Below, one piece after another: positions 14,271-41,142 of a stretch of 64,000 nucleotides of DNA (within the stretch, counting starts at the first letter, position 1; each line of letters opens with the position of its first letter). Under the pieces are notes generated by a model, which was not told where the DNA came from, did no database searches, and saw only the letters and a program-made list of their open reading frames with translations. This DNA is from Chloroflexota bacterium. Lineage in GTDB: Bacteria > Chloroflexota > Limnocylindria > QHBO01. The translations under genes and the position numbers were made by a program. The stretch lies in contig JBDTNK010000001.1 in NCBI GenBank assembly GCA_039933775.1, positions 5,938 to 69,937 of the forward strand, in the 5' to 3' direction.

Positions 14271-14422
14271 CCTGAGGTCGCTCGGTGCTTGAGCGCACCA
14301 TCGTGCCGCCGCGCGCTATTGCGCTGGCCGTACCCTTGCCTCAGGATCGCGACTAGTACTTATTACTCACTTATCACCCACTTATCGGCTAGATTCAGCC
14401 GGGTGGGGGACGCACGGGGCGA
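14270..14422 (+). promoter_or_regulatory. AT-rich intergenic region upstream of the priming transferase operon (putative promoter)
   Basis: The only markedly AT-rich stretch in the window is gactagtacttattactcacttatcacccacttatcggctag. It contains reiterated TTAT(C/T)AC-like words and precedes a long co-directional gene run. Confidence 0.3.
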
Positions 14423-20633: not shown

Positions 20634-22405
20634 GGACGATCGAGTTCGCTGGCGCCGTCGGCAGCGGCAAGAGCACACTTGCGCCGGAGCTTGTCCGGCT
20701 GCTGCGGGAGGCGGGAATTGACGCGGTCGGGCAAACGGACGCGCTCGCCGGACTCGTGAGCCGCCGGGTCGGGCTCGCCGTCGATGCGCCCCACGGTGCT
20801 GCTTTCGCCGCAACCCATCCTCGTCTCATGCTCCTCGTCGCCCGGGTGTTGGCGCGCGCCGCGACCGATCGATCACATCGCCGCCGCATCGCGGGTCTCG
20901 TACTGCGGCTTGGTGCGCGGCGGCAGTTCCTGGAGTCCACGCTCGCGCCCGACAGGACCGTCGTGATCGACGAGGGTTTCGTGCAGCGCGCCGTCAACGT
21001 CTTCGCCTGGGCCCCTGGACCGCTGCCGGTGCGCGACCTAGCGCGCTACTTCAGACTGGCCCCCATCGGGGACGTGGTCGTGATGGTCCAGGTTGATGGC
21101 CGTGTCGCCCGAGGGCGCGCGCGAGCTCGAGGGCTGCCGCAACGGGTCGCAGCGAAGCCAGTTGAAGAGGCCGAGCGATTCTTGGCAAGAGCGGAGCAGG
21201 TGGTTGATGCGGCCGGCCGAGTGCTCCAGTCGCTCGGCGTGCCGACGATCGTGGTGAACAATGACGGTACGCGCGAGGGGGCGGTCGACGCGCTGCGCGG
21301 ACACCTGCCGCAGCTGGCGGGCGCAGCGCAGCCGCCGCGCATGAAGTTTGGCCCGCTCGCATTGTCCCGCCCGCGCCGGCGGGGCCGGGCGGCCGTCACT
21401 CCAACGGGACTCGAGGCCGCGATGGACGCGCTCGGGATTGGTACCTGGCGGCTGCTGCGTCCGCTTGGCCGGGCCACCGGCCGCAGCGGGTCTGCGCTCG
21501 TCGAGACGCCCGCCGGGCCGCTCGTGCTCAAGCGCTATAAGGCCAGCGTGCCGATCGATCAGGTACGCGTCGAGCACGAGATTCTCCGCGAGCTCGAGGC
21601 GCTTCAGTTTCCGGCACCCCGGCTCCGAGCGAGCTCGGACGGCACAACGATCATCGATGCCAGCGGGGCGATGTTCGCCGCGTTCGGCTACCTCGACGGC
21701 TATCGACGCTCAGACGACGTGCTCCGGCCGGGGTGGTTGCAGCCGGCCACGGCGCGACTCCACGGTTCGGCGCTTGGCGCGCTGCACGCTGCGCTCGCGG
21801 GCTTCGTCCCCGAAACAACGAGCCCGCACGGCTTGGACCGCAACGCGCCGGGCCGCCGAGCTCGCGATCTGCAGTGGCACGAGGACCTCCTCGATGAGGT
21901 CGAGCGCAGTCCACGCGCACCTCGCCTTCGGGAGGAGCTCGCCGAGCTGCGCCACGTCCTCCCCGAGAGCGACGCGCGGGTGTCGGCCGCGGAGCTGTCG
22001 GCAGGAGTGGTGCATGGCGACTTCGGGCCATACAACGTTCTTATCCGGGATGGCGCGCCGCTCTTCATCGTCGACTACGAGCTTGCGCGACTGGACTGGC
22101 GCGTCGTGGATCTGGCAGCGGCACTCCCGCGATACCTCGGACGCCGGCGCGGCCGCGACGCGGAGCGACGCCTGAGTCGATTCCTGGATGGGTATCGGTC
22201 CAAGGTGGGCCTTTTGCCGCAGGAGCTGCGAGCGCTGCCGGCGGTGTTGGCCTTCCTTAGCCTGCGCCGGGCTGCGGTTCTGCTGGGCCGCTGGATCGAT
22301 CAGCCTGGAGACGCAGCGCCCTGGGAGGTCATCGAAAAACTGATGCTCGCGCGCACCATCGCTGCAGGTGATCACGTAATCGCACGCGTGGCGCGCACAT
22401 TCTGA
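20630..22405 (+). CDS. Two-domain protein: N-terminal P-loop NTPase plus C-terminal aminoglycoside/choline-kinase-like (APH) phosphotransferase
   Basis: The N-terminus has the P-loop FAGAVGSGKSTLA. The C-terminus has the Brenner/APH catalytic motif VVHGDFGPYNVLI followed by FIVDYE. A GTG start at 20630 overlaps the upstream stop as GTGA. Confidence 0.5.
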   Translation: MRTIEFAGAVGSGKSTLAPELVRLLREAGIDAVGQTDALAGLVSRRVGLAVDAPHGAAFAATHPRLMLLVARVLARAATDRSHRRRIAGLVLRLGARRQFLESTLAPDRTVVIDEGFVQRAVNVFAWAPGPLPVRDLARYFRLAPIGDVVVMVQVDGRVARGRARARGLPQRVAAKPVEEAERFLARAEQVVDAAGRVLQSLGVPTIVVNNDGTREGAVDALRGHLPQLAGAAQPPRMKFGPLALSRPRRRGRAAVTPTGLEAAMDALGIGTWRLLRPLGRATGRSGSALVETPAGPLVLKRYKASVPIDQVRVEHEILRELEALQFPAPRLRASSDGTTIIDASGAMFAAFGYLDGYRRSDDVLRPGWLQPATARLHGSALGALHAALAGFVPETTSPHGLDRNAPGRRARDLQWHEDLLDEVERSPRAPRLREELAELRHVLPESDARVSAAELSAGVVHGDFGPYNVLIRDGAPLFIVDYELARLDWRVVDLAAALPRYLGRRRGRDAERRLSRFLDGYRSKVGLLPQELRALPAVLAFLSLRRAAVLLGRWIDQPGDAAPWEVIEKLMLARTIAAGDHVIARVARTF

Positions 22406-22483: not shown

Positions 22484-24739
22484 GTGCCCGCCGTGCCGAA
22501 AATCTTGAAGGTCGTCGCTGTTCTGGCGGTGACGTTCGCGCTCATTGCCCCGGGCCTCGTGGTGGCCAAGAACGACAAGGCGACCGCGCCGCAGCAGGCG
22601 TTTGTCCGATTGTTGCGTCACATCGAGGTGGCTGAGTTCGGGATCGCGCATCCTGCCGGGCTGGCGTATGTCCCGGCCACGCGCGCGCTGCTCGTCATCG
22701 ACGCGTCCGGCGCGGCGAGCCATCTGGTTGGCGTCAGCGAGGACGACCTTGGGCCCGTTGCGCTGCCTGCCGTGCCAGATTCGGCCGCGGCGGTGACGTT
22801 CGACGCGGCCACGAGCGCCCTCGTCGTCATCGACGGCAGCGCCGTCGTGAACGAGGTCGCGGCACCAAACGGCCGCCCATCTGGTCCTCCGACGCAGGGC
22901 CGCGCCGTCGCTCCCCAGACCGTGACCGGCACGGCAATAAGTGGAGGTGAGCTGCTCGTGGGCGACGGCAGCGGCTTCGTCGCGCTTGCGCCGGACGCTT
23001 CGCGCGGGTCGAGGCGTGTCGACATGAGCCGCCTGGGAGAGCCGCTTGTTGGCATCGCCGTCGATCCGGAGAGCGGACATCTCTACACCTTGGGCAGCAG
23101 GTCGCGGACGCTCTTCGAGCTCGACACGACCGGAACCGTGCTGTCCACGCGCGATCTCTCGACGCTCGGGCTGAGCGAGCCCCAGGCCATTGTGGCCGCG
23201 CCCAGCGCCGACACGACGGACGATGCGACGGCGATCAGCCTATTCGTCGCCGATGCCGGCCCAAGCGGCGGCACGGGGACGGTTGTCGAGCTGGGTCTAC
23301 AGGCACCGCAGATTTCCCCACAGCTGGCCCTCGCGGCGGCGAGCAACGCGACCCTCGTCCGCACGATCGACACATCCGGATGGCCAAGCCCGGATCCTTC
23401 GGGCATCGCCTACAACACGGCGAGTAATCGGCTCATGGTCGTCGACGGTGAGATCGACGAGATGCAGATCTATTCCGGGTTCAATGGCTACGAGTCGACG
23501 CTCACCGGTACGCTCCTGCGGACGTTCGACACGCTCGGCTGGCGGTCCACCGGACCGTGTGGTGGCCAATCAGGTCTCCAGACCTGCCTGAACAAGGAAC
23601 CGGTCGGCGTCGCGATCAACCCGACGAATGGCCACGTCTTCGTTTCGAACGACTCGAAGAAGACGGTCTGGGAGGTCACTCCCGGTGGTGACGGCGTCGT
23701 AGGCGGCAGCGATGACGTGCTGCGCTCGTTCCGGCTCGATACTCTCGGCGTCGGCGATCCCGAAGGCCTCGGGATCGGCGGCGGACGGCTCTGGGTCGCC
23801 GACGGCACGAACCGCGAGATCTGGTCGCTCGCCCCGGGTAACGACGGGCTCTTCGGGACGCCCGACGACCCCATCGCCCACTTCGACACTGATTCGCTCG
23901 GTGAGCCGGATCCGGAGGGCGTCGACTACGATTCCGCGACCGGACACCTGTGGGTCGTGAGTAACGACACCCAGCAGACACTGCTCGAGGTCACGACTTC
24001 GGGTTCGCCGGTGCAGGTCGTGGACATCTCGGCGTCTCAGGCACGCTCGCCAGGCGGCGTGGCGGTTGGACCAGCGAGCGGCGGTTCGGGTCGCAGCGTC
24101 TACGTCGCGGATCGCGGTGTCGACAACAATGACAATCCGAACGAAAATGACGGACGCATCTACGAGCTGGCGATCGGCTCCGCGCCAGATCCTACGCCGA
24201 CACCGGTGCCCACCCCAACGCCCGTCCCCACCGCCACGCCGATTCCGACGGCGACGCCGAGCGCGACACCATCGGCGACACCGGTTCCGCCGGGCACCAA
24301 CCTGGTGGTCAACGGCGACTTCGAGGCCGACGTCAATGGGGACGGCCCGGACAACTGGTCGACGCACGAGCATTTCACTCGGTCGACCACGGCCGCTCAC
24401 GCAGGGACGTACGGTGGCTTGCACAGCGCGACAGATGGGAGCCGATACAACATCCAGCAGGATGTGCCGGTCGTGGGTGGCAACGCATACGACTTCAGCG
24501 GCTGGGTCAACATCCCGAACGCCAATGGCACGACGCGGTTTATCCTGAAGGTCCAATGGCGTAGCAATCGGAATCTTGGCGTGACTGAGATCGCGAAGTT
24601 CACGACCGCGACCAGCGGGTGGGTCCAGGTCAATGATTCGGTAACGGCGCCTGCGGGTGCCACGGCAGCTCGACTGATCATGACGCTGCGGAACTTCAAC
24701 GGGACCGTCTGGGTCGACGATTTTCGCCTGCAGCGCTGA
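22484..24739 (+). CDS. Secreted protein with a beta-propeller-like repeat region, a Pro/Thr linker and a C-terminal CBM4/9-like carbohydrate-binding module
   Basis: A signal-peptide-like N-terminus (KILKVVAVLAVTFALIAPGLVVA) leads into repeated DPSG/DPEG...Y/W blades. A PT-rich linker PDPTPTPVPTPTPVPTATPIPTATPSATP follows. The C-terminal domain begins NGDFEADVNG...W, as in CBM_4_9 modules. Confidence 0.55.
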   Translation: MPAVPKILKVVAVLAVTFALIAPGLVVAKNDKATAPQQAFVRLLRHIEVAEFGIAHPAGLAYVPATRALLVIDASGAASHLVGVSEDDLGPVALPAVPDSAAAVTFDAATSALVVIDGSAVVNEVAAPNGRPSGPPTQGRAVAPQTVTGTAISGGELLVGDGSGFVALAPDASRGSRRVDMSRLGEPLVGIAVDPESGHLYTLGSRSRTLFELDTTGTVLSTRDLSTLGLSEPQAIVAAPSADTTDDATAISLFVADAGPSGGTGTVVELGLQAPQISPQLALAAASNATLVRTIDTSGWPSPDPSGIAYNTASNRLMVVDGEIDEMQIYSGFNGYESTLTGTLLRTFDTLGWRSTGPCGGQSGLQTCLNKEPVGVAINPTNGHVFVSNDSKKTVWEVTPGGDGVVGGSDDVLRSFRLDTLGVGDPEGLGIGGGRLWVADGTNREIWSLAPGNDGLFGTPDDPIAHFDTDSLGEPDPEGVDYDSATGHLWVVSNDTQQTLLEVTTSGSPVQVVDISASQARSPGGVAVGPASGGSGRSVYVADRGVDNNDNPNENDGRIYELAIGSAPDPTPTPVPTPTPVPTATPIPTATPSATPSATPVPPGTNLVVNGDFEADVNGDGPDNWSTHEHFTRSTTAAHAGTYGGLHSATDGSRYNIQQDVPVVGGNAYDFSGWVNIPNANGTTRFILKVQWRSNRNLGVTEIAKFTTATSGWVQVNDSVTAPAGATAARLIMTLRNFNGTVWVDDFRLQR

Positions 24740-24760: not shown

Positions 24761-26221
24761 ATGACCTCGCGGGCTGAACCGGTCAACCGGCCGCCGATCG
24801 CTGCCCTTGCACTGGGCCGGCCGTTCGACGCGCGCTGGAGCGGTGTCGCGACCGTGGTCGTTGGCATCCTGGCTGGACTGGCGATCGCCTATTTGATCGC
24901 AACCGGCAATGGCCAGATGGCCATCGGAGCCGCCCTCGCGGTGCCCATCGCCGCGCTGGTGGTCGGCGATCCATTCATCGGGGTGATCCTCTGGGTCCTC
25001 ACCGTCCCGTATTTCAGCGGCCTTTCCGCCGAGACCGGGCCGGTGATCTGGGCCGTCCATCGGTTCGGCATCCCTGCGGTGATCGTGCTGACCGCGGTTC
25101 ACAGCCGCCTGGGATGGCGTCGCTGGGGCCTCCGCGTCGGGTGGGTCGATCTGTTTCTTGCGGCATTCATCGCGATCGGGCTAGTGAACATCGTGTTCCT
25201 GGCACCAAACACACAGCGCATGATCGCGTCGTTCTACGACAAGATGATTGTCCCGATCGCGCTCTTCTGGCTGATCCGAGCGATGGCACCTCGCCGCCGG
25301 GAGCTGCGCATGCTGGTCGGGGCGGGGCTGATTACGCTGGTGACCCAGTCGACCATCGGCTTGCTGTCCTGGGTGGCCCCGAGCGTGCTTCCCTCAGCTT
25401 GGCTCGGGCGCGCCGGAGAGCGCACGACCGGCACGCTCGGCGGCCCTGCTCCGTTCACGATCACGCTCGTCCTTTTCGGGATCATCGCGGTCCACGCAGC
25501 GGCCCAGTCGCCCTCGGTGCGGCATCGGGCGGTCATGATCGGTGCCACCCTGCTCGCGGCGGTTGCGATCTTCCTGTCGCTCTCTCGTGGGAGCTGGTTA
25601 GGCGCGGGCATCGCCTTCACCGGGGTCGCATTGATCCACCGCCGTCTCGTGGGGCTCATGGCAGTCATCGCAGTCTTGACGATCGTAGCGCTGAGCGCCG
25701 GACCGCTCGCCGAGCAGGTGGCCTTCGCCCAGGAGCGGATAGGTGACGACGACACGGTGGAGTCGCGAATTGTCACGAACGATGCATCGCTGCGCATGAT
25801 CGAGGCACAGCCGATCATCGGGTTTGGCTTCGGAAACTTCGAGCGATACGACGAGTCGTTCAAACGGCGCGTGGGCGACATCCCGCTGAAGTTGGGTGGG
25901 AGTTCCCACAATACCTACCTGGCAATGCTCGCGGAGCAGGGCATTCCCGCCACCACGCTCTACCTCGCCGTGCCGGTCGTCCTCCTCGCGACGACGTTCC
26001 TTCGCTGGCGGGACCTGCCGCCTTCTGGCCTGGGCAGCCGCGTGTTCGTGGCAGCCCTGTGGCTCGCGATCATCGACATGTTCGTGGTCCAGAATTTCCT
26101 CGAGATGATCCACTCATCGTACTGGGCGACTTCCCTCTGGTGGCTGACGCTCGGCCTCATCGCATCGGTTCTCGACCGCGCCGACGAGCGACGGCGGTTC
26201 GATACCGCGGTGGACCGATGA
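24761..26221 (+). CDS. O-antigen ligase/polymerase-family membrane protein (Wzy-like)
   Basis: About 10-12 TM helices. It carries the Wzy_C signature region FLSLSRGSWLGAGIAFTGV with a large loop. The stop overlaps the next gene as ATGA. Confidence 0.7.
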   Translation: MTSRAEPVNRPPIAALALGRPFDARWSGVATVVVGILAGLAIAYLIATGNGQMAIGAALAVPIAALVVGDPFIGVILWVLTVPYFSGLSAETGPVIWAVHRFGIPAVIVLTAVHSRLGWRRWGLRVGWVDLFLAAFIAIGLVNIVFLAPNTQRMIASFYDKMIVPIALFWLIRAMAPRRRELRMLVGAGLITLVTQSTIGLLSWVAPSVLPSAWLGRAGERTTGTLGGPAPFTITLVLFGIIAVHAAAQSPSVRHRAVMIGATLLAAVAIFLSLSRGSWLGAGIAFTGVALIHRRLVGLMAVIAVLTIVALSAGPLAEQVAFAQERIGDDDTVESRIVTNDASLRMIEAQPIIGFGFGNFERYDESFKRRVGDIPLKLGGSSHNTYLAMLAEQGIPATTLYLAVPVVLLATTFLRWRDLPPSGLGSRVFVAALWLAIIDMFVVQNFLEMIHSSYWATSLWWLTLGLIASVLDRADERRRFDTAVDR

Positions 26222-27183
26222 TCACCCCCACCGCTGAACCGCTGCCGGTGCCGCCACCAGAGCGGATCGACTCGATCTTCGTCGTCGGTCTCAGCCGGAG
26301 CGGCACGACGCTGCTGCGCAACATCCTGAACCGCCACGACGCCATCGCCATCGCGCCCGAGAACCACTTTCTTGGGCATCTCATCGCCAGTGAGGGCGTG
26401 CGGCACAAGCTCCGCCGCTTCGGCGACTTATCCGACGACGCACGGCTTCGCAGCATGGTCGACTTTTTTTACGACGGCGGTCTGAGCCGCGCCAGCCGGC
26501 TGCGTGACCCGAGCCGCTTCTGGGCGTGGCTCGCCAAGCGCGTCCCTCGCGAAGAGCTCTTCGCGCGGCTGGTAGCGACAGATCGCAGCGAGCGAGCGAT
26601 CTTCGGGGCCGTGCTGGATGCCTATGCGGTGCGGAAGGGTAAGCGGATTCGCGGCGAGAAGACGCCGGCCCATCTGCGCTACGTGCCGACGCTGCTTGAC
26701 TGGTATCCCGGAGCCCGCGTGATTCACATGATGCGCGACCCCCGTGCGATCTTCGTGTCGGAGCTGCGGCGGCGACGAGCGACCGGCGGCGGCAAACCCT
26801 ATCGGTTCCTGGCGGCTGTACCGCCGCTGCTTGCCGCCTTCGTGCTGATCGAGACGACCGTCATCTGGGTCGAGGGGGCGTGGCGCGCGGGGCGCTACGG
26901 GCGCACGTTCCGTGGTCGGTATCGGATGCTTCGGTTCGAGGATCTCGTCCGCCGTCCCGAGGTCGAGCTGCGCCAAGTCTGCGCATGGCTCGGCCTCGAC
27001 TTCCAGGAAGAGATGCTCGAACAGCACGTGGTCAGCGTCGGTGCGCGGCTTGGCGAGCAGGGCATCGACAGCGAGGCGGCGACGCGCTGGCAGAGCAACA
27101 TCCCCGCGTGGGCCGATTGGTGGTTCCGCACCGCCCTCCGTGGCCGCCTGCGAACTTTCGGATACGAGACGGCAGACCGATGA
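26218..27183 (+). CDS. Sulfotransferase (paralog 1 of tandem array)
   Basis: The 5'-PSB loop is IFVVGLSRSGTTLL and the 3'-PB region is IHMMRDPRAIFVS. ATGA-coupled on both sides. Confidence 0.75.
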   Translation: MITPTAEPLPVPPPERIDSIFVVGLSRSGTTLLRNILNRHDAIAIAPENHFLGHLIASEGVRHKLRRFGDLSDDARLRSMVDFFYDGGLSRASRLRDPSRFWAWLAKRVPREELFARLVATDRSERAIFGAVLDAYAVRKGKRIRGEKTPAHLRYVPTLLDWYPGARVIHMMRDPRAIFVSELRRRRATGGGKPYRFLAAVPPLLAAFVLIETTVIWVEGAWRAGRYGRTFRGRYRMLRFEDLVRRPEVELRQVCAWLGLDFQEEMLEQHVVSVGARLGEQGIDSEAATRWQSNIPAWADWWFRTALRGRLRTFGYETADR

Positions 27184-28169
27184 CGGCTGAGCCGGCCGGT
27201 CCCATCTTCATTGGCGGACCTGATCGCTGCGGCAAGACGCTCGTCGCGGCGCTGCTCGGCTCGCACTCGCGGATCGCGATCCCGGTGGTGGGCTCCAACG
27301 TATGGACGCTCTTCTACGGCCGCTTCGGCGATCTCGAGGTTGACGCCAACTTCGACCGTTGTCTCGCGGCGCTGATGGCATACAAACACATCCGGTTTCT
27401 GGATCCGGACGAGGCGCGGCTGCGTCAGGCCCTGCGCCGTGGGGGACGGACCTACGCCAGGCTCTTTGCTGCCATCCAGGCGCAGCACGCCGAGCGACTC
27501 GCCAAGCCGCGATGGGGGGACCAGACTGGCCTCGTGGAGGCCTACGCCGACGAGATCTTCGCCGCGTACCGGGGTGTGAGGATGATCCACATGGTTCGAG
27601 ACCCGCGCGACCGCTACGACGCATCACTCAGTCTCTGGCCCGAGGGGAAGCTCCGAGCCGGCGGTGCAACCGCGCGCTGGCTCTACTCCGTGCGTCTGGC
27701 CGAGCAGAACGCCGCGCGCTACGGTGACTCCTACCGGATTCAGCACTATGAAGCGCTCGTCCACGATCCCGAGGCGACGATTCGGGAGCTATGTGCCTTC
27801 GTGGGCGAGGCGTTTGAGCCCGCCATGATGGAAATGGGTGACATGCCGACCTACCGGGCGAAGCTGGAGGCAGGCAGATCCCGGTCGAGCGCCGGGCCGC
27901 TGATCAGCGACGCGTTCGTCGGAATCTTCCGCGGCCGTCTGGCCCCGGCTGAGCTCGCCTTCATGCAGTCGCGAGCCGGCTCGACGATGAGACGTCACGG
28001 ATACGCCCTCGAGCAGGTGCAGATGGGAAACGTTGCGCGGCTCCGCTACCTGGCGCTCGACTGGCCGCTCGACGCATTGCGTCTCGCTGCATGGCGAGCA
28101 CGGACCATCGTTTCGCGGATCGCCCCGCGGTTCGCCGGCCGGCAGCCGCCGCGACGTCATCTGGCATGA
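27180..28169 (+). CDS. Sulfotransferase (paralog 2 of tandem array)
   Basis: The N-terminus is MTAEPAGPIFIGGPDRCGKT. The shared block WTLFYGRFGDL and the 3'-PB region IHMVRDPRDRY are present. ATGA-coupled. Confidence 0.75.
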   Translation: MTAEPAGPIFIGGPDRCGKTLVAALLGSHSRIAIPVVGSNVWTLFYGRFGDLEVDANFDRCLAALMAYKHIRFLDPDEARLRQALRRGGRTYARLFAAIQAQHAERLAKPRWGDQTGLVEAYADEIFAAYRGVRMIHMVRDPRDRYDASLSLWPEGKLRAGGATARWLYSVRLAEQNAARYGDSYRIQHYEALVHDPEATIRELCAFVGEAFEPAMMEMGDMPTYRAKLEAGRSRSSAGPLISDAFVGIFRGRLAPAELAFMQSRAGSTMRRHGYALEQVQMGNVARLRYLALDWPLDALRLAAWRARTIVSRIAPRFAGRQPPRRHLA

Positions 28170-29092
28170 CCGTGCCGACCGCTGGGCCGGTTTTCATCAC
28201 CGGACTCGATCACGGTGGCAAGACGCCGCTGAGGGTCGTGCTCGACAGGATTCCCACCCTGGCGCTCTTGCGGCGAGCGTATCTGTGGACCTGGTTCGAC
28301 GGCCGCTTTGGGCCACTCGCCGAACCAGCGAATTTGCGGCGCTGTGTCGCGGCGCTGAAGGCTCACCGCGCGCTTGCGAGCCTGGACCTCGACGTGGGCA
28401 AGATCAGCCGTCAATTCGCGGAGGGACCTGCGAGCTACGATCATCTCTTTATGCTCATCGGCCAGGCTTACGCCGAGTCCCGCGGCGCCTCGCGCTGGGG
28501 CATGCAGGAGTCGAACCTCGAGCGTCATGCCGCGCGATTGCTGTCGAGCGATCCGTCGACGCGCATCGTCCATCTCGTGCGGGACCCCCGGTCGTGGTAC
28601 GCGGCGGTTTCCGCGGATGCGGCGCGCCGAGGTGGCATCGGGGTCGCCGCCGCAGTCTGGGGCCGTTCGAGCCGGCTCGCGCTGCGGCTCGCCGCCCACC
28701 ACCCCGGACGCTATGGGCTCGTGCGTTACGAGGACTTCGCCGCTGACCCGGCTGCAACCGTTGAAGGCGTGTGCCGGTTCATCGGCGAGCCAGCGGAACC
28801 GGCGGTGCTGGCCGCCGCGGCCGGACTACGGTTGTCCACCAGTGGCCACGAGCTGCCGGCCAGATGCAGCGTCTATTTCGAGACGGAGCTCGCCGACGTC
28901 ATGACCCGGCTCGGCTACCATGGCGCGTCCGAGCTGCGATGGAGAGACGCAGCGCGATTTCGGCTCCTGACCCGACCCGTGGCGCGCCTTATGGCGACGG
29001 GGTGGTCGGCGACCGAGCGCTGGCCGACCGCCGGAGAGTTGATTCGCGGTCGAGCAACAGCTCGCAAAGTGAGACTGGATGATGCACGCTGA
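28166..29092 (+). CDS. Sulfotransferase (paralog 3 of tandem array)
   Basis: The N-terminus is MTVPTAGPVFITGLDHGGKT. WTWFDGRFGPL and VHLVRDPRSWY are present. ATGA-coupled. Confidence 0.75.
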   Translation: MTVPTAGPVFITGLDHGGKTPLRVVLDRIPTLALLRRAYLWTWFDGRFGPLAEPANLRRCVAALKAHRALASLDLDVGKISRQFAEGPASYDHLFMLIGQAYAESRGASRWGMQESNLERHAARLLSSDPSTRIVHLVRDPRSWYAAVSADAARRGGIGVAAAVWGRSSRLALRLAAHHPGRYGLVRYEDFAADPAATVEGVCRFIGEPAEPAVLAAAAGLRLSTSGHELPARCSVYFETELADVMTRLGYHGASELRWRDAARFRLLTRPVARLMATGWSATERWPTAGELIRGRATARKVRLDDAR

Positions 29093-29096
29093 ACCG

Positions 29097-30113
29097 ATGA
29101 CCGATGCACCGGCGGGGCCTGTCTTCGTCGGCGGCCTGGACCGAACGGGCACGAGCCTCATCTACGCGCTGCTCGCTTCTCATCCGAGCCTGGCAATGTC
29201 GCGCCGCACGAACTGGTGGACATATTTCTACGGGCGCTTCGGCGACCTCGGTGACGATCGCAATGTGGATCGATGCCTCTCGGTCATGCAGCGGTATCGG
29301 CGGCACCGAAAGCTCGATCCAGACTGGGACCGCCTGCGGGCGGACTTCGTCGCTGGGGAGAGGTCGTACGGCCGGCTGTTCGCGCTGCTGGAGGCGCAGC
29401 ATGCTGCTCGCCTCCATCGTCCGCGCTGGGGCGACAAGTCACTTCACACCGAGCGCTACGCGTCGCTCGTTTTCGAGCATTTTCCGGACGCCCGCATCAT
29501 CCACATGATCCGCGACCCCCGCGACCGCTATGCATCGGTGCTCAAGCGGTGGAAGCGGGTTCGTGGCGGCGCCGGTGCGTCGACCGCCGCCTGGATCGCT
29601 TCGATTCGACTGGGCGAGCGGAATCGGGAGCACTATCCGGATCGCTACCGGCTGCTGCGCTACGAGGACCTGGCGGCGGAGCCCGAAGCGACGATGCGCT
29701 CCATCTGCAACTTCATTGGTGAGCCGTTCGAACCGCGCATGATGGGGATGGAGGGAGCTGCCGACTTCCGCGACGCTGGCGGCAACAGCTCGTACGAGCG
29801 ATTTGCGGAGGGAACGATCTCCACCGCCTCCATCGGTCGTTATCGGTCGGTCCTGGATCCAGCCGACCTGGGGTTCATCACGAGCAGCGCCGCAGCCGAG
29901 ATGCGACGGCACGGCTATGAGGTGGGGAGCGAGAAGGCGCCCGCCAGTGGTCGGCTCCGGTATCGGCTCGTCGCCTGGCCGATGAACGCGGTTCGGATGG
30001 CGGGATGGCGAGCACGCGAGTGGCTCTACGACCGGCTGGGACGCGCGCCGGGCTCGGAGACGATGAGCGAGCTCAGCCCGGCGTCGAATACCGCGGGCGA
30101 TCAGGGCACGTAG
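29097..30113 (+). CDS. Sulfotransferase (paralog 4 of tandem array)
   Basis: The N-terminus is MTDAPAGPVFVGGLDRTGTS. WTYFYGRFGDL and IHMIRDPRDRY are present. An alternative upstream ATG lies at 29079. Confidence 0.75.
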   Translation: MTDAPAGPVFVGGLDRTGTSLIYALLASHPSLAMSRRTNWWTYFYGRFGDLGDDRNVDRCLSVMQRYRRHRKLDPDWDRLRADFVAGERSYGRLFALLEAQHAARLHRPRWGDKSLHTERYASLVFEHFPDARIIHMIRDPRDRYASVLKRWKRVRGGAGASTAAWIASIRLGERNREHYPDRYRLLRYEDLAAEPEATMRSICNFIGEPFEPRMMGMEGAADFRDAGGNSSYERFAEGTISTASIGRYRSVLDPADLGFITSSAAAEMRRHGYEVGSEKAPASGRLRYRLVAWPMNAVRMAGWRAREWLYDRLGRAPGSETMSELSPASNTAGDQGT

Positions 30114-31057
30114 CCGTGACGCTCCATGTCAGCGCCGAGGGCCCCTGAGAGGAATCGTGACGCTAGCGGGTGGATGTGGTCGCGCCATCGCTCCGCCGCC
30201 TTCGAGTCGAACCCGTCGCCGGCGTGGCGGCCCGCCGTGTAGCTCGACCCCGTTCGGCGCGCCTCCAGCAGCGATGTCGAGAACGCGATCCCGAGGAATT
30301 CGCATACCCGGCGCAGGGATGCTTCCGGATCCCCAATAAGGTCTTCGAACCGGACGAGGAGATAGCGATCGCCAAGCTCCCGTCGATAGCGACTGTCGAG
30401 CCGCGCGGCTGCACGCCAGGTGATCGCGGTGTGGCCGAGCTCGATCGGCATGAGCGCCGGGTCGCCCACCGCATCCGGCAGCCATGGTAGCCGCCGCTTC
30501 AGCCCCCAACGCCCGTCCTGGCGGCGTCGCAGCTCCGATGTGAAGATCGCCCGCGGATCCCGAAAGGTGTGGATGAACCGTGCGTCCGGGAACCAAGCGT
30601 GCAGCTGCGGGACATCGGCCAGGTGCTCGGGTGTCTTCTCACCGAGCACGAGGGGAGCCTGCTCGCTGCAACGATCCTCGGCGTACAGGGTCATCCCGAG
30701 CACGAAGAGGCTCCGGAGCGTGCGATCGGTCGCTGCCAGTCGCTCGGTGAAGGCCTCGACCGGCACGTTCTTGCGGAGCCAGTTCCAGAGCCCCTTGCCA
30801 CTGAACGAGTCAGGCGTGTACATCTCCACGGCGAGCGCTCTCAATGCCGTGGGATCGCCCGTTCCCTTGAGGCGCTCGGCCAGGCGAAGATGCTTCGCTC
30901 GTCGGAAGAAATGCGTCTCGGGTGCCAGACACACCTGCGACGAACGATTCAAAACGTGCTGGAGCAGGGTCGAGCCGGTGCGGGGGCGGCCCACGATGAA
31001 CAGGTGCGTCGCCTGATGCACCTCAGGCGTCAAAGCTGTACCCGGCGAGCCCCGCAT
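30101..31057 (-). CDS. Sulfotransferase (minus-strand paralog)
   Basis: Contains LFIVGRPRTGSTLL and IHTFRDPRAIFTS. It is convergent with the plus-strand array, overlapping it by 13 nt. The start was chosen at MRGSPG; the track start at 31219 is unlikely. Confidence 0.65.
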   Translation of the reverse strand: MRGSPGTALTPEVHQATHLFIVGRPRTGSTLLQHVLNRSSQVCLAPETHFFRRAKHLRLAERLKGTGDPTALRALAVEMYTPDSFSGKGLWNWLRKNVPVEAFTERLAATDRTLRSLFVLGMTLYAEDRCSEQAPLVLGEKTPEHLADVPQLHAWFPDARFIHTFRDPRAIFTSELRRRQDGRWGLKRRLPWLPDAVGDPALMPIELGHTAITWRAAARLDSRYRRELGDRYLLVRFEDLIGDPEASLRRVCEFLGIAFSTSLLEARRTGSSYTAGRHAGDGFDSKAAERWRDHIHPLASRFLSGALGADMERHGYVP

Positions 31058-31916
31058 GCCTGGCGATACCCGCCTCGATCGCCGTCCGCTGCTCAGCGCT
31101 CCAGTCGACCTGATCACGGGTCCGGGAGGGGCCGCGGAAGAGGATGCCGGCGGCCGCTTGGAGGTAGTCCTCGGGTGCCGGCAGGCCAAGGAGCGTGCAT
31201 AGCACCGCGAGCTCCTCACGCGGGCGCGTCACCAGATCCTCGTGCCGGAGTGTGTGAATCGCATCGGGCTCCAGGCGCTCCCGAAGCCGCTCAATCTTCT
31301 CCCAGTTTCCGAAGTAGCGTTCCAGCCCGCTCTCGAACGTCCGGCCGCTGCGCAGCATCATCGTGCCGATGTTGTCGTACGGATTGCGCACGACGTGGAT
31401 GAAGCGCAGGTCGAGCCCAGCCATCGTTCGCCGCAGTCGATCGAGGAACGCTGGATCGGCGTCGAGGCGCTGCACCGACCGTCCGGCGTCACTGTCGCCC
31501 ACGACGCGCAGCTCCCGATGCCGGCCCTGCCACTGCCCGGGGACCGCATAGCTGTAGACGCTCCCGCCGCGGCCGCGCTTGCGGCGCTCACGCCGATGCT
31601 GGTCACGTGCCACCTTCAGGCAGAGCGCCAGGACCCGGTCGCGGTCGAAGCCGGCAGCGACGTACTTCAGGGCGTCGAGCTCGTCGGAGAGCACGATCTG
31701 CGGATGTGCGTCGAGGAGCGCTCCCACGATGCTGTGCCCCGAGCGCGCATGACCCAGGAACGTGACGAAGGTGCCAACACTGCGAAGCTCGTCGCGATGG
31801 CGGCGTGCGTCACGTGTCGAGATGGCATAGCGCCAGCCCGTGTGCAGCGGCGTGCCCCGGACGAGGTGACGGACGCGCCCGGCGAATGACTCCTCGCCGA
31901 GAGGCAGCTCACTCAT
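31023..31916 (-). CDS. Sulfotransferase-like protein
   Basis: Has the P-loop-like motif FLGHARSGHSIV and the 3'-PB-like motif RFIHVVRNPYDNIG. It overlaps the downstream paralog and the upstream family-2 sulfotransferase. Confidence 0.55.
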   Translation of the reverse strand: MSELPLGEESFAGRVRHLVRGTPLHTGWRYAISTRDARRHRDELRSVGTFVTFLGHARSGHSIVGALLDAHPQIVLSDELDALKYVAAGFDRDRVLALCLKVARDQHRRERRKRGRGGSVYSYAVPGQWQGRHRELRVVGDSDAGRSVQRLDADPAFLDRLRRTMAGLDLRFIHVVRNPYDNIGTMMLRSGRTFESGLERYFGNWEKIERLRERLEPDAIHTLRHEDLVTRPREELAVLCTLLGLPAPEDYLQAAAGILFRGPSRTRDQVDWSAEQRTAIEAGIARHAGLAGYSFDA

Positions 31917-32712
31917 CGTCGCTCGTCACGGCCGGCTCGGCGCTGCGGTGCCGAGCGCGATTCCTGCCGACGATACGAGGCCGCAGGTGGCGCCAGTAGA
32001 GCCCGCCGACGGCGCTCACTGTCGCGTACTGGGCCTCGTGCCAGCGGCTCGGTGGGGCCAGCTCCCAGGACGGCGGCAACTCGTATCCCCAGCGGCGCAT
32101 GTAAGGCCCGAACACGCGGCGAGCGTGGCGCTGCGCCCCCTCGTCGTAATACGTGCTGAAGTCCCGATCGCGCTGTCCGGTCTGGTTGGCGACCGGGAGC
32201 GGTCGGACCGGCTCGACCCCGATCAGGCGCAGCGCCTCAGCGAAGTCATCGGTCAATCGTTCGAAGCGCATCACAAGGTCGAAGCGATCGTGAGAGAGGC
32301 TGGCCCAGGTGTCGAAGGGGAGGGGATAGAAGCGACGGAGGAAGCCGCCGAAATCGCTGCGCCCACGGCGCACGAAGCGGAACGCACTCTCGTCGAGCAC
32401 ACGGTTCACGAAGGGCTTGTGCTTGGGCTGCCGGGCTGGGTCAGTGTACCGGCCCTTGTGATCAGTGCGGAACTTGAAGTAGCGGCTGACCGCGTCATCG
32501 AGCGGGTTGCGGATCGAGGAGAAAACGAAGTAGCGCCGCTCGTCCTCCGTCGCGATTGCGGCGAACTCCTCGTAGGTCGCGTGCTTGTGGAGGATGGGCT
32601 CGCCGTCGTACAGCTCGCGCAGCTCGCGTCGAACGGCGGTCGAGCCGGTACGGGGAAGCTCCACGAAGAGATATCGGTGTTTATGACTGATGATCATTGA
32701 CGCTCGTGGCAC
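31909..32712 (-). CDS. Sulfotransferase family-2-like protein
   Basis: Has the 5'-PSB motif FVELPRTGSTAV and the 3'-PB motif SSIRNPLDDAVSRY. It resembles carbohydrate and Nod-factor type sulfotransferases. Confidence 0.6.
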   Translation of the reverse strand: MPRASMIISHKHRYLFVELPRTGSTAVRRELRELYDGEPILHKHATYEEFAAIATEDERRYFVFSSIRNPLDDAVSRYFKFRTDHKGRYTDPARQPKHKPFVNRVLDESAFRFVRRGRSDFGGFLRRFYPLPFDTWASLSHDRFDLVMRFERLTDDFAEALRLIGVEPVRPLPVANQTGQRDRDFSTYYDEGAQRHARRVFGPYMRRWGYELPPSWELAPPSRWHEAQYATVSAVGGLYWRHLRPRIVGRNRARHRSAEPAVTSDDE

Positions 32713-32832: not shown

Positions 32833-34047
32833 ATGGGGACTGATCCGGAGACCACGGTGCTGCAGGTCGTGGCGAACCTCGACATCGGTGGTGCCCAAGA
32901 GGTGGTCCGCACGTTGTCGCGCTTTCTGCCCGAGTTCGGATGCCGCCCGGTCGTGGTGACGCTGCGCGATGGGCCCCTGCGCGGCGAGATCGAGCGTACG
33001 GGTGTCGCGGTCGAGGTTCTGCCCGGGCGCCGTCACTCGCTCGTTCGCTCCGTCTGCGCGATTCCGGAGCTCGTCCGCCTCAATGCTGATCTCGGCCGCC
33101 TGGCGCGTCGCTACCGCGCCTCCGTCGTGCAGACGCACCTGCTGCGAACCTTGGATTTCGTGGTCCTGCCGCTTCGCGCGCGCGGCGGCGTCCGCGATGT
33201 GTTCTGGACCGTCCACAACGCCCGGCTTGATCTCCGATCCGATCAGCTTCCCGGCGGCGGCCGCCTCTTGGCACCCAAGGTCCGAGCGCACCGCATCCTG
33301 TATCGGGTCGGCATCCGTGGGGCCAGCGGATTCATCGCCGTGTCAGAGGACGCTGCGCGCGCCGTCCGCGACCAGCTCCATCCACCGCCGGAGAAGCTCT
33401 TCACGATTCCGAACGGGATCGACACGGACCGATACGGGGCATCGGTTGACGTCACGGACGTGCGACGCCGAATCGGCGTGCCCGTCGAAGGACCGATGCT
33501 CACGGTGGTCGCCAAGCTGATGGAGCAGAAGGGCCACCGCATCCTGCTCGAGGCGCTGCCGAGTGTGCTGGAGCGCCACCCCGACCTGCAGATCGTCTTC
33601 GCCGGCGAGGGACCGCTCCGCGACGAGATCCTGGCGCTGGTCGAGGCCATCGGGATCGCGAGCCACGTGCATCTCGTCGGCAACCGGCCCGACGTCGCGG
33701 ACCTCCTCGCGGCGAGCGACCTGTTCGTCCTGCCGTCGCTGTGGGAGGGCCTGCCGATGGCGTTGCTGGAGGCCATGGCTGCGCGGCTTCCGGTCGTCGC
33801 CACGTCGGTGTCGGGCAGCCGCGACGTCATCGTCGACGGGGAGAGCGGCCGGCTGGTGCCACCAGGCGACCCCGCTCGGCTGGTGGCCGCGATCATCGAG
33901 ATCCTCGGGGATCCCGCCCGCGCTCAGCGGCTGGGAACGGCGGCCCGGAAGCGGGTCGAGGCCGAGTTCAGCGGCCGGACCCAGGCGCGCCGCCATGCGG
34001 CGCTCTTCCGACGCGACGCACGCGAACCGGTCGGGGAGGTCGCATGA
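32833..34047 (+). CDS. Glycosyltransferase family 4
   Basis: The C-terminus has the Glycos_transf_1 signature LFVLPSLWEGLPMALLEAMAARLPVVAT...GRLVPPGDP (EX7E). Confidence 0.8.
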   Translation: MGTDPETTVLQVVANLDIGGAQEVVRTLSRFLPEFGCRPVVVTLRDGPLRGEIERTGVAVEVLPGRRHSLVRSVCAIPELVRLNADLGRLARRYRASVVQTHLLRTLDFVVLPLRARGGVRDVFWTVHNARLDLRSDQLPGGGRLLAPKVRAHRILYRVGIRGASGFIAVSEDAARAVRDQLHPPPEKLFTIPNGIDTDRYGASVDVTDVRRRIGVPVEGPMLTVVAKLMEQKGHRILLEALPSVLERHPDLQIVFAGEGPLRDEILALVEAIGIASHVHLVGNRPDVADLLAASDLFVLPSLWEGLPMALLEAMAARLPVVATSVSGSRDVIVDGESGRLVPPGDPARLVAAIIEILGDPARAQRLGTAARKRVEAEFSGRTQARRHAALFRRDAREPVGEVA

Positions 34048-35330
34048 ACAGCGATGGAAGTGGCTCGAGCGACGCGGACCGGAGTACGCTGACGGACGGG
34101 CCGTTGCGGCTGACGTACCTGATGGGCCGCTACCCCGTCCTCACCGAGACCTTCATTGACCGCGAGATCCTGCGGCTCATCGATCGAGGCGTGGATCTTC
34201 GGATCATCTCGATCCGGCAGCCTGACCACAATCTCTCGCCGCGCCAGCATGACCTCCGCAAGCGTGTTTCGTACCTCCTCCCCGTGTCTTTCGGGTCGCT
34301 GGTGGCGGCGCATGCCACGGCGATGGTCACGCGGCCACGGACCTACTTCGGGACGCTCGGCTGGCTGCTGACACGGCGTCATCCGCGCCGCACGCGGCTT
34401 CGGACGTTGCTGCATTTCGGGACCGGCGTCTATGCCGCGTGGAAGCTGCGCGATCGCAAGGGCGTCCACGTTCATGCCCATTTCGCTGACCGTGCGGCGA
34501 CCGTGGCACTCGTGGCGAGCCGGCTCATCGACGCCCGCTACAGCGTCACGGCCCACGCGCGCGAGATTTACGTCGCTCCGGTGCTGCTTCCCGAGCGGAT
34601 TAGCCAGGCGGCCTTCACCGCGACCTGCACCGAGTACAACCGGCGGCACCTCGCGACGCTCGTCGACGCCAGCACTGCGCAGCGCATCCTGCGCCTCTAC
34701 CACGGCCTCGACCTGAGTACGTTCGATGGGGCGCCGGGTCGCTCCGAGGATCGAGAGCGCCCGCTGCTGCTCTCGGTCGCGCAGCTCTGGGAACGCAAGG
34801 GCCTCGAGGACCTCGTGCGCGCCTGCGGCCTGCTGCGTGATCGCGGAGCCATCTTCGCGTGCGACATCGTCGGCGAGGGTCCGCTCCATGGGCGGCTCGA
34901 GGGGCTCATCCGGCAGCTTCAGCTCGACGGGATCGTCACGCTCACCGGTCCGCTGCGCCATCCCGCAGTGATTTCGCGGCTCGCCGCGGCTCGCGCCTTC
35001 GTGCTGCCCTGCGTCGTGGCGCCCGATGGTGACCGCGACGGCATCCCGAACGTGATCCTGGAGGCGATGGCATCGGGCCTGCCGGTCGTCTCGACCCCAG
35101 TCTCCGGTATCCCTGAGGTCGTTCGGGATGGCGAGACCGGCTTCCTCGTTCCCGAGCACGATCCGCCCGCGGTGGCCGATGCCTTGGAGCGCCTGCTGGC
35201 CGATCCGGAGCTCGCTGGCCAGCTCGGCGAGGCAGGCCGCGCCTTCGTCCGTCGGGAGTTCGATCTCCATCGCAACGTCGATCGTCTGATCGACCAGTTC
35301 GTCGCGTCGAGCATGTCGGCAGCACCTTGA
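34044..35330 (+). CDS. Glycosyltransferase family 4
   Basis: Has the signature FVLPCVVAPDGDRDGIPNVILEAMASGLPVVSTPVSG...GFLVPEHDP. The start is ATGA-coupled. Confidence 0.8.
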   Translation: MNSDGSGSSDADRSTLTDGPLRLTYLMGRYPVLTETFIDREILRLIDRGVDLRIISIRQPDHNLSPRQHDLRKRVSYLLPVSFGSLVAAHATAMVTRPRTYFGTLGWLLTRRHPRRTRLRTLLHFGTGVYAAWKLRDRKGVHVHAHFADRAATVALVASRLIDARYSVTAHAREIYVAPVLLPERISQAAFTATCTEYNRRHLATLVDASTAQRILRLYHGLDLSTFDGAPGRSEDRERPLLLSVAQLWERKGLEDLVRACGLLRDRGAIFACDIVGEGPLHGRLEGLIRQLQLDGIVTLTGPLRHPAVISRLAAARAFVLPCVVAPDGDRDGIPNVILEAMASGLPVVSTPVSGIPEVVRDGETGFLVPEHDPPAVADALERLLADPELAGQLGEAGRAFVRREFDLHRNVDRLIDQFVASSMSAAP

Positions 35331-36376
35331 CCGACACCACGAAGCTGCCGCGCGATACGACGTTCGTCGTATGGGCGGCTCGTCATCGCGGCACCCGGAG
35401 CGCGTGGCTCGCCGCCGAGCTCGGCATCGAGGACCTGCACTACCTCGCGCCGAGCTCCGGGCGTGGGCTTCGGGCGGCGCCGATGAAGTATCCGAGCCAG
35501 CTCGTTCGGACGCTGCGCCTGCTCACGGCGCGCCGTCCGCGCGCCGTCTTCGTCCAGAGCCCGCCGAGCTTCGCGGGCTGGACGGCAGCCGCGTACGCGG
35601 CTGCCTCGGGCGCTGCGGTGGTGGTCGACGCGCACAGCGACGCCTTCGAGCGGGCAATCTGGACGCGCCCCGCGTGGGTCAACCGCCAGATGGCGCAGCG
35701 GATCGCTGCCGTCCTCGTGACTGACGAGCACTGGGCCAGGATCGTTCGTTCGTGGGGTGGGACGCCGATCCTGGTCCCGAACGTTCCGGCACCGCTCGTC
35801 CCCGGCTCCGCTCCGCCACTCGATCCAGAACGCCCCAACGTCGCCGTGGTCAACACCTGGGCGCCTGACGAGCCGCTCGACGCGGTGCTGGCCGCGGCCG
35901 AGCTCATGCCCGGTGTCGCCTTCCACGTCACTGGCCGCAGCGATCGGGTCGGCACGCTCGGTCGACCCATTCCAGCTCACGTCACCTTCACCGGATTCCT
36001 GGACGAAGCGACGTACCTCGGCCTCTTGGCCACCGCCGACGCGGTGGTGTGTCTCACCTCTCGCGACCACACGATGCAGAACGGTGCCGCCGAGGCGCTC
36101 ACCCTCGGCACGCCGGTGGTGACGTCGGACTGGGCCATCCTGCGCAGCTATTTTTCGCGCGGCACCGTCCACACCGACAACAGCGCATCGTCGATCGAAG
36201 CCGGACTGCGGCGGCTCCTTGCGGAGCGCGACGCCTACCGGGCCGAGATCGTTGCGCTGCGCGACGAGCGCCGTCGCAGCTGGGAGGAGACGCGCGCAGA
36301 AGTCATCGAGGCGGTCTGGCGCCGGTTGGCGCCCTCGCCCACGAAACACGACACGAAAGGACTCATTCCGCGATGA
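35327..36376 (+). CDS. Glycosyltransferase (GT4-like C-terminal domain)
   Basis: The C-terminal block is MQNGAAEALTLGTPVVTSD. Coupled on both sides. Confidence 0.5.
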   Translation: MTDTTKLPRDTTFVVWAARHRGTRSAWLAAELGIEDLHYLAPSSGRGLRAAPMKYPSQLVRTLRLLTARRPRAVFVQSPPSFAGWTAAAYAAASGAAVVVDAHSDAFERAIWTRPAWVNRQMAQRIAAVLVTDEHWARIVRSWGGTPILVPNVPAPLVPGSAPPLDPERPNVAVVNTWAPDEPLDAVLAAAELMPGVAFHVTGRSDRVGTLGRPIPAHVTFTGFLDEATYLGLLATADAVVCLTSRDHTMQNGAAEALTLGTPVVTSDWAILRSYFSRGTVHTDNSASSIEAGLRRLLAERDAYRAEIVALRDERRRSWEETRAEVIEAVWRRLAPSPTKHDTKGLIPR

Positions 36377-41005: not shown

Positions 41006-41142
41006 GGGATGGTGCATTCGGGGCCGCGACTATACCCGACCCCCGATTGGCGCTTCCCGCCGCCCGGGGTATCATGCGCCGGTGGCCCAGCCCGAGCGGG
41101 CAACTGAGGCCGCCGGAGTGTGTCCCCTCCAAAGCAAGGTCC

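Follow-up and report, generated by a model that had tools for sequence, protein, structure and literature searches.

The window analysed here is the whole 64,000-nucleotide (nt) stretch of contig JBDTNK010000001.1 (assembly GCA_039933775.1) of a Chloroflexota bacterium (Limnocylindria), with a G+C content of 64-73%. Positions 26218-32712 of the window are occupied by an array of seven intact open reading frames (ORFs), A to G, four on the plus strand (A to D) and three on the minus strand (E to G), all of which scored above the Pfam gathering cutoffs for sulfotransferase families (Table 1). A to F matched PF13469 (Sulfotransfer_3; cutoff 27 bits), most of them together with PF00685, and G matched PF03567 (Sulfotransfer_2; cutoff 22 bits). 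In GenBank, C (MEO8509634.1) is labelled 'sulfotransferase' and G (MEO8509638.1) 'sulfotransferase family 2 domain-containing protein'. The seven sulfotransferase genes announced by the original prediction are therefore present, and two further sulfotransferase genes, at 8941-9861 (plus strand) and 40064-41017 (minus strand), make up the nine paralogs that it counted. No signal peptide was found in any of the nine proteins.

The same gene boundaries were obtained from an independent gene caller on an identical 12.6-kb public (Logan) contig, which carries the exact F protein and on which D starts at 29082; an exact look-up of the D protein starting at the ATG at 29097 gave no match. The reading frames of A, B, C and the gene at 19119-20633 were set by homology. 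ATGA overlaps join the upstream wzy gene to A, A to B and B to C. The same overlap had been claimed for C and D, but this junction is either a 4-nt gap (D start 29097) or an 11-nt overlap (D start ATG 29082). On the minus strand G and F overlap by 8 nt and F and E by 35 nt, and D and E meet tail to tail, their stop ends sharing 13 nt, exactly as first described. Twelve plus-strand genes, from position 14456 to the end of D at 30113, follow one another with overlaps or with no more than 125 nt between them, and the tightly packed array genes are probably co-translated. The G+C content at third codon positions (GC3) of the seven genes was 0.77-0.82, similar to that of the flanking genes. A scan of 24-34 kb for promoters and terminators gave no signal beyond the expectation from shuffled sequence, and Rfam and tRNA scans of the window gave no match. 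NCBIfam offered no family-level name for B, C, D, F or G, and only sub-threshold NoeE matches for A and E.

Around the array extends a locus of about 42 kb (window ~8.9-50.3 kb) in which the components of a Wzx/Wzy-dependent polysaccharide pathway are co-located: a priming polyprenyl-phosphate sugar-phosphate transferase (PGT; PF02397), the flippase Wzx (PF01943), the polymerase Wzy (PF04932), the chain-length determinant Wzz (PF02706) and four family 4 glycosyltransferases (GT4), in an order that is kept in related loci. The same locus contains, at 9833-12948, a predicted module for the supply of 3'-phosphoadenosine 5'-phosphosulfate (PAPS) and the removal of 3'-phosphoadenosine 5'-phosphate (PAP), which consists of ATP sulfurylase (Sat), adenosine 5'-phosphosulfate (APS) kinase (CysC) and a DHH protein whose best NCBIfam match, NrnA, reached 85 bits, under its cutoff of 350.

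These surroundings suggest that the array serves as the sulfation module of a Wzx/Wzy surface-polysaccharide locus in a Limnocylindria-related Chloroflexota genome, a reading to which we give a probability of about 0.65. A Wzx/Wzy locus with its own PAPS supply, a context absent from the original prediction, would explain the array. The predicted product is probably a heavily sulfated surface polysaccharide. Sat and CysC would make PAPS, and the NrnA-like enzyme would clear the PAP by-product. The PGT and the four GT4s would use uronic-acid and amino or N-formyl sugar precursors to assemble, on undecaprenyl phosphate, a repeat unit of about five sugars, and the soluble sulfotransferases would sulfate this lipid-linked unit at the cytoplasmic face, presumably at one position each, before Wzx flips it, Wzy polymerises it and the Wzz-GGDEF protein sets the chain length. 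Nine sulfotransferases against about five sugar transferases imply an unusually high sulfate density if all are active, and the polymer would be a polyanion with up to 1.4-1.8 sulfates per sugar. The members of the array are plausibly specialised for different acceptor positions. Several points weigh against this reading. Substrate, donor, activity and product are all deduced from family, motifs, synteny and fold in an uncultured metagenome-assembled genome (MAG); the regiospecificity of the sulfotransferases is assumed; the count of about five sugars leaves out glycosyltransferases that may be encoded elsewhere in the genome; and a sulfated polymer from Chloroflexota is so far unreported.

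Active-site residues were mapped through HMMER alignments to the sulfotransferases of OLS and CurM and to TPST (TPST R78, K158 and S191; CurM R39 and K133). In TPST2, Arg78, Glu99 and Lys158 are catalytic, and the R78A and K158A mutants are strongly impaired (PMC10951654). The Arg of the 5'-phosphosulfate-binding (PSB) loop is present in A, B, D and E and is replaced by His in C. Measured against the pattern of Arg or Lys followed by (S/T)G(S/T)(S/T), the PSB loops of A, D, E and G (RTGST) are canonical, F has RSGHS, and B and C carry Lys at the Walker position; four or five of the genes thus show the pattern and two a variant of it. The catalytic base is Glu in TPST and CurM and His in cytosolic SULTs. 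This Glu (PE.H or DELD) was found in A, E and F, whereas B, C and D do not have it at the corresponding alignment position; Glu119 (C numbering), which is conserved throughout the B/C/D family, is a candidate alternative base. A, D and E retain the strand Lys, for which B and C have Gln. All seven proteins have the Arg of the 3'-phosphate-binding (3'-PB) motif, followed at position +8 by Ser or Thr in A, D, E, F (Thr) and G (R63/S71) and by Ala in B and C. The alignment recovered RSGTT in A, RCGKT in B, HGGKT in C and RTGTS in D, the four loops given by the original prediction, and its description of donor-binding loops as unusual, which proved its most useful lead, holds for B and C. Of the sequence blocks it assigned to all four plus-strand genes, MTxxPAGP and WT.F.GRFG are confined to B, C and D; in A just RFGDL and IHMMRDPR are present.

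TPST1/2 and the CurM and OLS domains (PDB 5wri, 3ap3, 4gbm and 4gox) were the best sequence and fold matches, and among solved structures they are the nearest to D and E. A and E agree with these enzymes in the PSB-loop Arg, the Glu base, the strand Lys and the 3'-PB Arg/Ser; B, C and D lack the Glu base, and B and C show three further changes, loop Thr to Lys, strand Lys to Gln and 3'-PB Ser to Ala. Catalytic and 3'-PB residues are thus not lost throughout the array, since the loop Arg and strand Lys as well as the 3'-PB Arg/Ser persist in A, D and E, and no protein had its best structural match outside the sulfotransferases. A non-sulfotransferase P-loop family was rejected for the array as a whole.

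G belongs to a separate Pfam family. A search with it returned 814 homologues, most of them with PF03567 and many from soil metagenomes at about 60% identity, in which the PRTGST loop and R63/S71 are invariant. Its model has a pLDDT of 84.7, and the top 15 PDB structural matches were all sulfotransferases, with weak E-values; a PDB sequence search with G gave nothing meaningful. A alone carries a hydrophobic insert of 19 residues (198-216; 26809-26865; Kyte-Doolittle mean 2.04), for which E has no counterpart and which may dip into the membrane.

B (GPDRCGKT) and C (GLDHGGKT) both contain a complete Walker A motif, GxxxxGKT. Orthologues of C retain GLD[HQR]xGKTPLR and RWGxQE, and across 17 loci all B-like and C-like genes had GKT with Gln and all D-like genes GT[ST] with Lys. 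Since their orthologues keep them, the variants of B and C are not private degenerations. A profile search of 1.84 billion cluster representatives gave 958 family members (E<=1e-30), and alignment (hmmalign) of the best 150 of these together with earlier matches gave 153 scorable domains, 112 of the GK[ST] type (GK-type) and 41 canonical; the counts that follow refer to these domains and to C numbering. The Lys and the Thr or Ser of the GK-type loop were invariant (112/112 each), whereas the canonical relatives vary at these two positions (TT, IG, TS, LA). Lys at position 114 of the strand was found in none of the GK-type domains (Gln in 106, His in 6) and in 38 of the 41 canonical ones, and Lys19 and Lys114 never occurred in the same domain. 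Ser or Thr at 147, in the 3'-PB motif, was seen in 4/112 against 39/41, Arg or Lys at loop position 16 in 52/112 against 40/41, and Arg or Lys at position 23 in 92/112 against 10/41. On the other hand, the 3'-PB Arg139 was kept in 108 GK-type and all 41 canonical domains, and RWG, H136, W165, Y183 and the Glu of YEDL are common to both groups.

The GK-type subfamily comprised at least 100 clusters (50% identity) among the top matches, and GK[ST], Q114 and E119 are kept across more than 100 cluster representatives. The model of C is a confident TPST-like sulfotransferase fold, with a strand at 110-114 (DSSP). With this conservation and this fold, it is unlikely that the unusual loops mark paralogs inactivated by decay, as had been suggested. 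Guanylate, gluconate, shikimate, dephospho-CoA and APS kinases gave far weaker structural matches than sulfotransferases, and the test for kinases as the nearest sequence or structure relatives of B and C came out negative, Pfam assigning PF13469. B, C and D genes are always adjacent and sometimes fused (database proteins P0020 and P0022), and two proteins (P0023 and P0047) have Wzx fused to a GK-type domain, which places the subfamily at the flippase. Other natural fusions among database proteins, including P0020 and P0021, were a tandem pair of GK-type domains and a single protein of 1298 amino acids (aa) with four canonical ones. Literature searches returned no relevant paper on Walker-A-type sulfotransferases.

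We lean, by a modest degree, towards B and C being rewired but still PAPS-dependent sulfotransferases. The Walker-A-type Lys of the PSB loop (GxxxxGK[ST]) would stand in for the strand Lys, now Gln, so that the same positive charge, one ε-amino group, would be delivered from either of two backbone positions; the loop Arg would become dispensable, and its partner, the 3'-PB Ser, has disappeared. In P-loop folds the Walker Lys is directed toward the C-terminal end of the neighbouring strand, and position 114, at the end of strand 110-114 in the model, is where it would point. The loop Lys of cytosolic sulfotransferases forms a functional pair with the 3'-PB Ser (SULT1E1 K48/S138), and by this pairing the relaxation at Arg16 and the loss of Ser147 are coherent with each other. 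The mutual exclusion of Lys19 and Lys114 fits the relocation of a single functional group, and the retained RDPR Arg and other family motifs argue that PAP(S) is still the ligand. Set against rewiring are the following points: the placing of K19 beside residue 114 comes from general P-loop geometry and not from model coordinates; B and C lack two or three residues essential in TPST2 and may be inactive or use another donor; B, C and D have no TPST/CurM Glu base at the aligned position; the strict GK[ST] with its invariant Thr/Ser has the look of a true NTP-binding Walker A; and the motif association tracks phylogeny and could reflect one or two events only, so that the Fisher tests on it are not phylogenetically independent.

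It is possible, though we think it doubtful, that B and C are no longer sulfotransferases and either use another nucleotide, as ATP-dependent glycan kinases or with APS as donor, or act as non-catalytic, nucleotide-binding partners of D or Wzx, which would leave five working sulfotransferases in the array. A perfect Walker A at positions that are free in canonical relatives would suit nucleotide binding of that kind, but B and C, unlike P-loop kinases, keep the sulfotransferase 3'-PB Arg (RDPR) and the YEDL block, and share the other family motifs with the canonical group. Three of the canonical residues for PAPS or for catalysis have been lost or have relaxed, and substitution at the first and third of the catalytic TPST2 residues is damaging (PMC10951654); relocation, on the other hand, predicts that Lys19 and Lys114 should never be found together, as was observed. 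The constant neighbourhood and occasional fusion of B, C and D also speak for this reading, as does the faster evolution of C than of its neighbours (52% against about 76% identity between orthologues); the separate kinase-like proteins already encoded in the locus speak against it.

A bolder joint proposal, which we regard as improbable, is that B and C are a natural intermediate between P-loop kinases and sulfotransferases, or a reversion, in either case with another donor or chemistry, and that the polymer of the locus is a cell-wall polymer sulfated to the level of heparin. If B and C carried out ATP-dependent glycan phosphorylation or used APS as donor, the locus would write a mixed sulfate/phosphate code; if the product were a wall polymer, it would be a phosphate-free counterpart of teichoic acid in monoderm Chloroflexota and Actinomycetota, and the ligand of the CWB2 protein of the locus.

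Sulfation of a surface glycan, as preferred here, has also to be set against other substrates for the array as a whole, namely peptide or protein tyrosine (as for TPST and RaxST), a lipid or glycolipid, or an intermediate of secondary metabolism (as for CurM and OLS). The nearest solved relatives do act on peptide tyrosine or on a β-hydroxyacyl group bound to acyl carrier protein, but the context in the window points to a lipid-linked glycan: the array is not interspersed with genes for polyketide synthases, nonribosomal peptide synthetases, ribosomally synthesised and modified peptides or lipid synthesis, the ketoacyl synthase at 53.8-55.3 kb sits beyond cysS and NUDIX, overlapping wzy and GT4 genes flank the array, the order with Wzx, Wzy, glycosyltransferases and PGT is kept across phyla, and Wzx-sulfotransferase fusions exist. 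A non-glycan substrate is accordingly considered very unlikely.

The original prediction viewed the array as a tandem duplication of seven paralogs followed by diversification. BLASTP identities were 47% between B and D, 37% between B and C, 36% between C and D and 36% between A and E, and fell to 22-28% between A or E and B, C or D; F gave only short or weak matches to other members, and G no significant match to the other six proteins. The comparison indicates four lineages, {B,C,D}, {A,E}, F and G, and a single seven-fold tandem duplication is not borne out by identities of 22-47% among the related members. With F weakly related and G without a significant match, 'seven paralogs' was an overstatement. 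In a neighbour-joining tree the B/C/D family had a bootstrap of 100%, while the deep branching was weak and not resolved (bootstrap 50 at the key node).

Each array gene has a one-to-one orthologue in related MAGs, and in Limnocylindria MAGs the gene order is that of the window. Identities to the Limnocylindria MAG GCA_038209995.1 were 77% (A), 75% (B), 52% (C), 77% (D), 48% (E), 79% (F) and 76-77% (G); with 48-52% against 75-79% in their neighbours, C and E are fast-evolving. In GCA_038209995.1 and two other genomes the orthologue of E lies on the plus strand, and one extra A/E-like sulfotransferase is present. E (30101-31057) is thus inverted relative to its closest relatives (loci L002, L007 and L016), and the convergent arrangement seen in the window stems from a local inversion specific to this lineage. 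The low conservation of C and E, the extra A/E-like gene and the inversion of E together suggest that the sulfation pattern differs among species. A core set is also found in MAGs of Anaerolineales and Actinomycetota and consists of DegT, GFO, PGT, Wzz-GGDEF, Wzx, B, a C-like gene, D, Wzy, F, the unknown protein of about 500 aa, the P-loop/APH protein and GT4; in both groups the B gene directly follows Wzx. The presence of the B-C-D triad in Limnocylindria, Anaerolineales and Actinomycetota implies that it is ancient, older than the split of the Chloroflexota classes, and did not arise recently here. That the array is a recent tandem amplification with redundant or decaying copies, B and C becoming pseudogenes, was therefore rejected as the least credible account, because the adjacency and similar length of the genes and the degenerate look of the canonical motifs in B and C are outweighed by identities of 22-47%, a G from another family, orthologues of every member in other species and of the triad in other phyla, intact ORFs with GC3 like that of their neighbours, and variant residues that are themselves conserved. 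In one related contig (ENA ERZ25039573 contig_6202, 1161-8586; L006) the orthologous sulfotransferase genes are broken into several short ORFs, either by assembly indel errors or by real pseudogenisation in that population.

Among known systems, the locus most closely resembles the xss (synechan) cluster of Synechocystis sp. PCC 6803, which has 2 sulfotransferases and 8 glycosyltransferases, and in which the sulfate number tracks the number of sulfotransferase genes (Maeda et al. 2021, PMC8205485); its authors described such clusters and sulfated polysaccharides as otherwise unreported in bacteria (PMC8205485). Both are Wzx/Wzy clusters with a polysaccharide co-polymerase and cytoplasmic sulfotransferases of distinct subfamilies among the glycosyltransferases. 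The locus in the window, unlike xss, has 9 sulfotransferases to about 5 transferases, its own Sat, CysC and PAP-phosphatase-like genes, a Chloroflexota host and a product predicted from genes; it has a Wzz-GGDEF fusion, and no regulators of the XssQ/R/S type were seen. General scans of the window genes turned up no response-regulator, histidine-kinase or STAND match. We regard xss as a probable analogue of the locus and not as a member of the same family. The wps-1 cluster of Actinoplanes missouriensis is a two-sulfotransferase Wzx/Wzy cluster with a kinase-like protein, WpsI, for which a sulfated polymer was predicted (PMC13390465, 2026). It shares with the locus the Wzx/Wzy system, a non-cyanobacterial monoderm host, sulfotransferases, a kinase-like protein and a product that is only predicted, but its two sulfotransferases come from other families, a B-C-D triad is missing, PAPS genes were not reported in the cluster, and its role is linked to the sporangium matrix. 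Teg14, StaL, 3-OSTs and NDST1 were among the structural matches. The glycopeptide enzymes Teg12/13/14 and the heparan-sulfate NDST, 2-OST, 6-OST and 3-OST comprise several related PAPS enzymes, each with its own position on one scaffold, although scaffolds and cellular settings differ; to our knowledge all members of these sets keep the canonical PSB and 3'-PB residues.

Sulfation of polysaccharides by PAPS enzymes is known; what is new here is the number of sulfotransferases, the locus's own donor supply, the core shared across phyla and a conserved non-canonical subfamily. The literature that was searched treats bacterial sulfated polysaccharides as essentially a cyanobacterial trait (PMC8205485, PMC13390465), with xss and its two sulfotransferases as the only characterised cluster; it contained no relevant paper on sulfotransferase loci of Limnocylindria or Chloroflexota, and one mat metagenome study reported its two Chloroflexi MAGs without sulfotransferase genes. 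The locus leads to the prediction that monoderm bacteria abundant in soil and freshwater produce surface polymers with dense sulfation, with a bearing on sulfur and carbon cycling, cell-envelope biology and microbial routes to heparin-like materials. The B/C subfamily would offer a concrete, testable example of how a catalytic residue relocates within the sulfotransferase fold, or possibly of how the donor changes. The significance would be greater if B and C use a different chemistry or if the polymer is a sulfated wall polyanion.

Table 1. Sulfotransferase (ST) genes and other features of the polysaccharide locus (window positions)
Feature	Position	Strand	Family matches	Active-site motifs and remarks
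ST A	26218-27183	+	PF13469 106 bits	RSGTT loop, PENH Glu, GEKTP Lys, RDPR....S; canonical; 36% identity to E
ST B	27180-28169	+	PF13469 67.7 bits	GPDRCGKT, RWGDQ; 3'-PB Ser to Ala; GK-type
ST C	28166-29092	+	PF13469 56 bits	GLDHGGKT, RWGMQE, RDPRSWYAA; GK-type; fast-evolving
ST D	29082 or 29097-30113	+	PF13469 107.6 bits	RTGTS canonical loop, RWGDKS, RDPRDRYAS
ST E	30101-31057	-	PF13469 111.7 bits	RTGST, PETH, GEKTP; canonical; fast-evolving; inverted relative to relatives
ST F	31023-31916	-	PF13469 54.8 bits	RSGHS loop, SDELD, RNPYDNIGT
ST G	31909-32697 or 32712	-	PF03567 (Sulfotransfer_2) 24.6 bits	PRTGST loop, R63, S71
ST no. 8	8941-9861	+	PF13469 58.9, PF00685 42.7 bits	PKSGTT loop, RNP....S 3'-PB
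ST no. 9	40064-41017	-	PF13469 56.1 bits	AYSGST loop, DASK, RDVRGVATS
DHH/DHHA1 phosphoesterase, NrnA-like	9833-10855	-	PF01368, PF02272	Candidate PAP phosphatase; start inferred
ATP sulfurylase (Sat)	11068-12249	+	PF01747 331 bits; NF003166 555 bits (cutoff 387)	
APS kinase (CysC)	12283-12948	+	PF01583 201 bits	
Priming PGT	14456-15178	+	PF02397 208 bits; TIGR03025 267 bits, sub-cutoff	
GFO/IDH/MocA sugar-nucleotide oxidoreductase	15178-16293	+	PF01408, PF22725; best NCBIfam UDP-GlcNAc 3-dehydrogenase, sub-cutoff	
Wzz chain-length determinant fused to GGDEF	16419-17558	+	PF02706, PF00990	
Wzx flippase	17539-19122	+	PF01943, PF13440, PF01554	
Conserved unknown protein, ~504 aa, weak P-loop	19119-20633	+	Pfam sub-threshold only	ATGA overlap with Wzx
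Weak P-loop kinase-like N-terminal domain fused to APH-type phosphotransferase	20630-22405	+	PF01636 76.8 bits	
Secreted NHL-repeat/CBM_4_9 protein	22484-24739	+	PF01436, PF02018	
Wzy-type polymerase/O-antigen ligase family	24761-26221	+	PF04932 68.9 bits	
Three GT4 glycosyltransferases	32833-34047, 34044-35330, 35327-36376	+	PF00534, PF13692, PF13439, PF13579	Junctions overlap
Nucleotide-sugar 6-dehydrogenase	36373-37689	+	TIGR03026 404 bits (cutoff 190)	
Three CWB2 cell-wall-binding repeats and pectate-lyase-like beta-helix	37783-40074	+	PF04122 164.7 bits, 3 stretches; PF00544 sub-threshold	
NDP-sugar epimerase/dehydratase	42515-43582	+	PF01370, PF16363	
Second nucleotide-sugar dehydrogenase	43569-44954	-	TIGR03026 396 bits	
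Formyltransferase	46323-47330	-	PF00551, PF02911	
Fourth GT4	47550-49088	+	PF13579, PF13692	
DegT-type sugar aminotransferase	48937-50328	+	PF01041 414 bits	

In sulfotransferase no. 9 the Arg of the PSB loop is replaced by Tyr, and the protein has a Cys-rich insert (CSCGRLLNEC). The Wzz-GGDEF fusion is kept in related loci, including those of Anaerolineales and Actinomycetota, and suggests that cyclic di-GMP is coupled to polymer length or export. The unknown protein encoded at 19119-20633 showed 72% identity to positions 3121-4620 of locus L002 (tblastn), and the N-terminal domain of the protein encoded next to it (20630-22405) matched AAA_33 at 21.8 bits, under the cutoff. The two genes are coupled by a GTGA overlap, the pair accompanies sulfotransferases across phyla, and it is reminiscent of the kinase-like WpsI of the Actinoplanes wps-1 cluster.

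A second pectate-lyase-like ORF with uncertain boundaries was seen at 40660-42588 (plus strand), and its product and the CWB2-repeat protein could anchor to the polymer or trim it. A membrane protein encoded at 44912-46300 (plus strand), with a weak match to a Na/Pi-cotransporter family (34.7 bits), might import anions, for example sulfate or phosphate. Between the PAPS genes and the polysaccharide operon lies a stretch of 1.4 kb (12949-14392) with no confident ORF and no Rfam or tRNA match. The approximate ends of the locus are marked by housekeeping genes at 148-7847 (PGI-like, 6PGD, G6PD, OpcA and proline dehydrogenase) and by genes for CysS, NUDIX and a ketoacyl synthase at 51151-57362.

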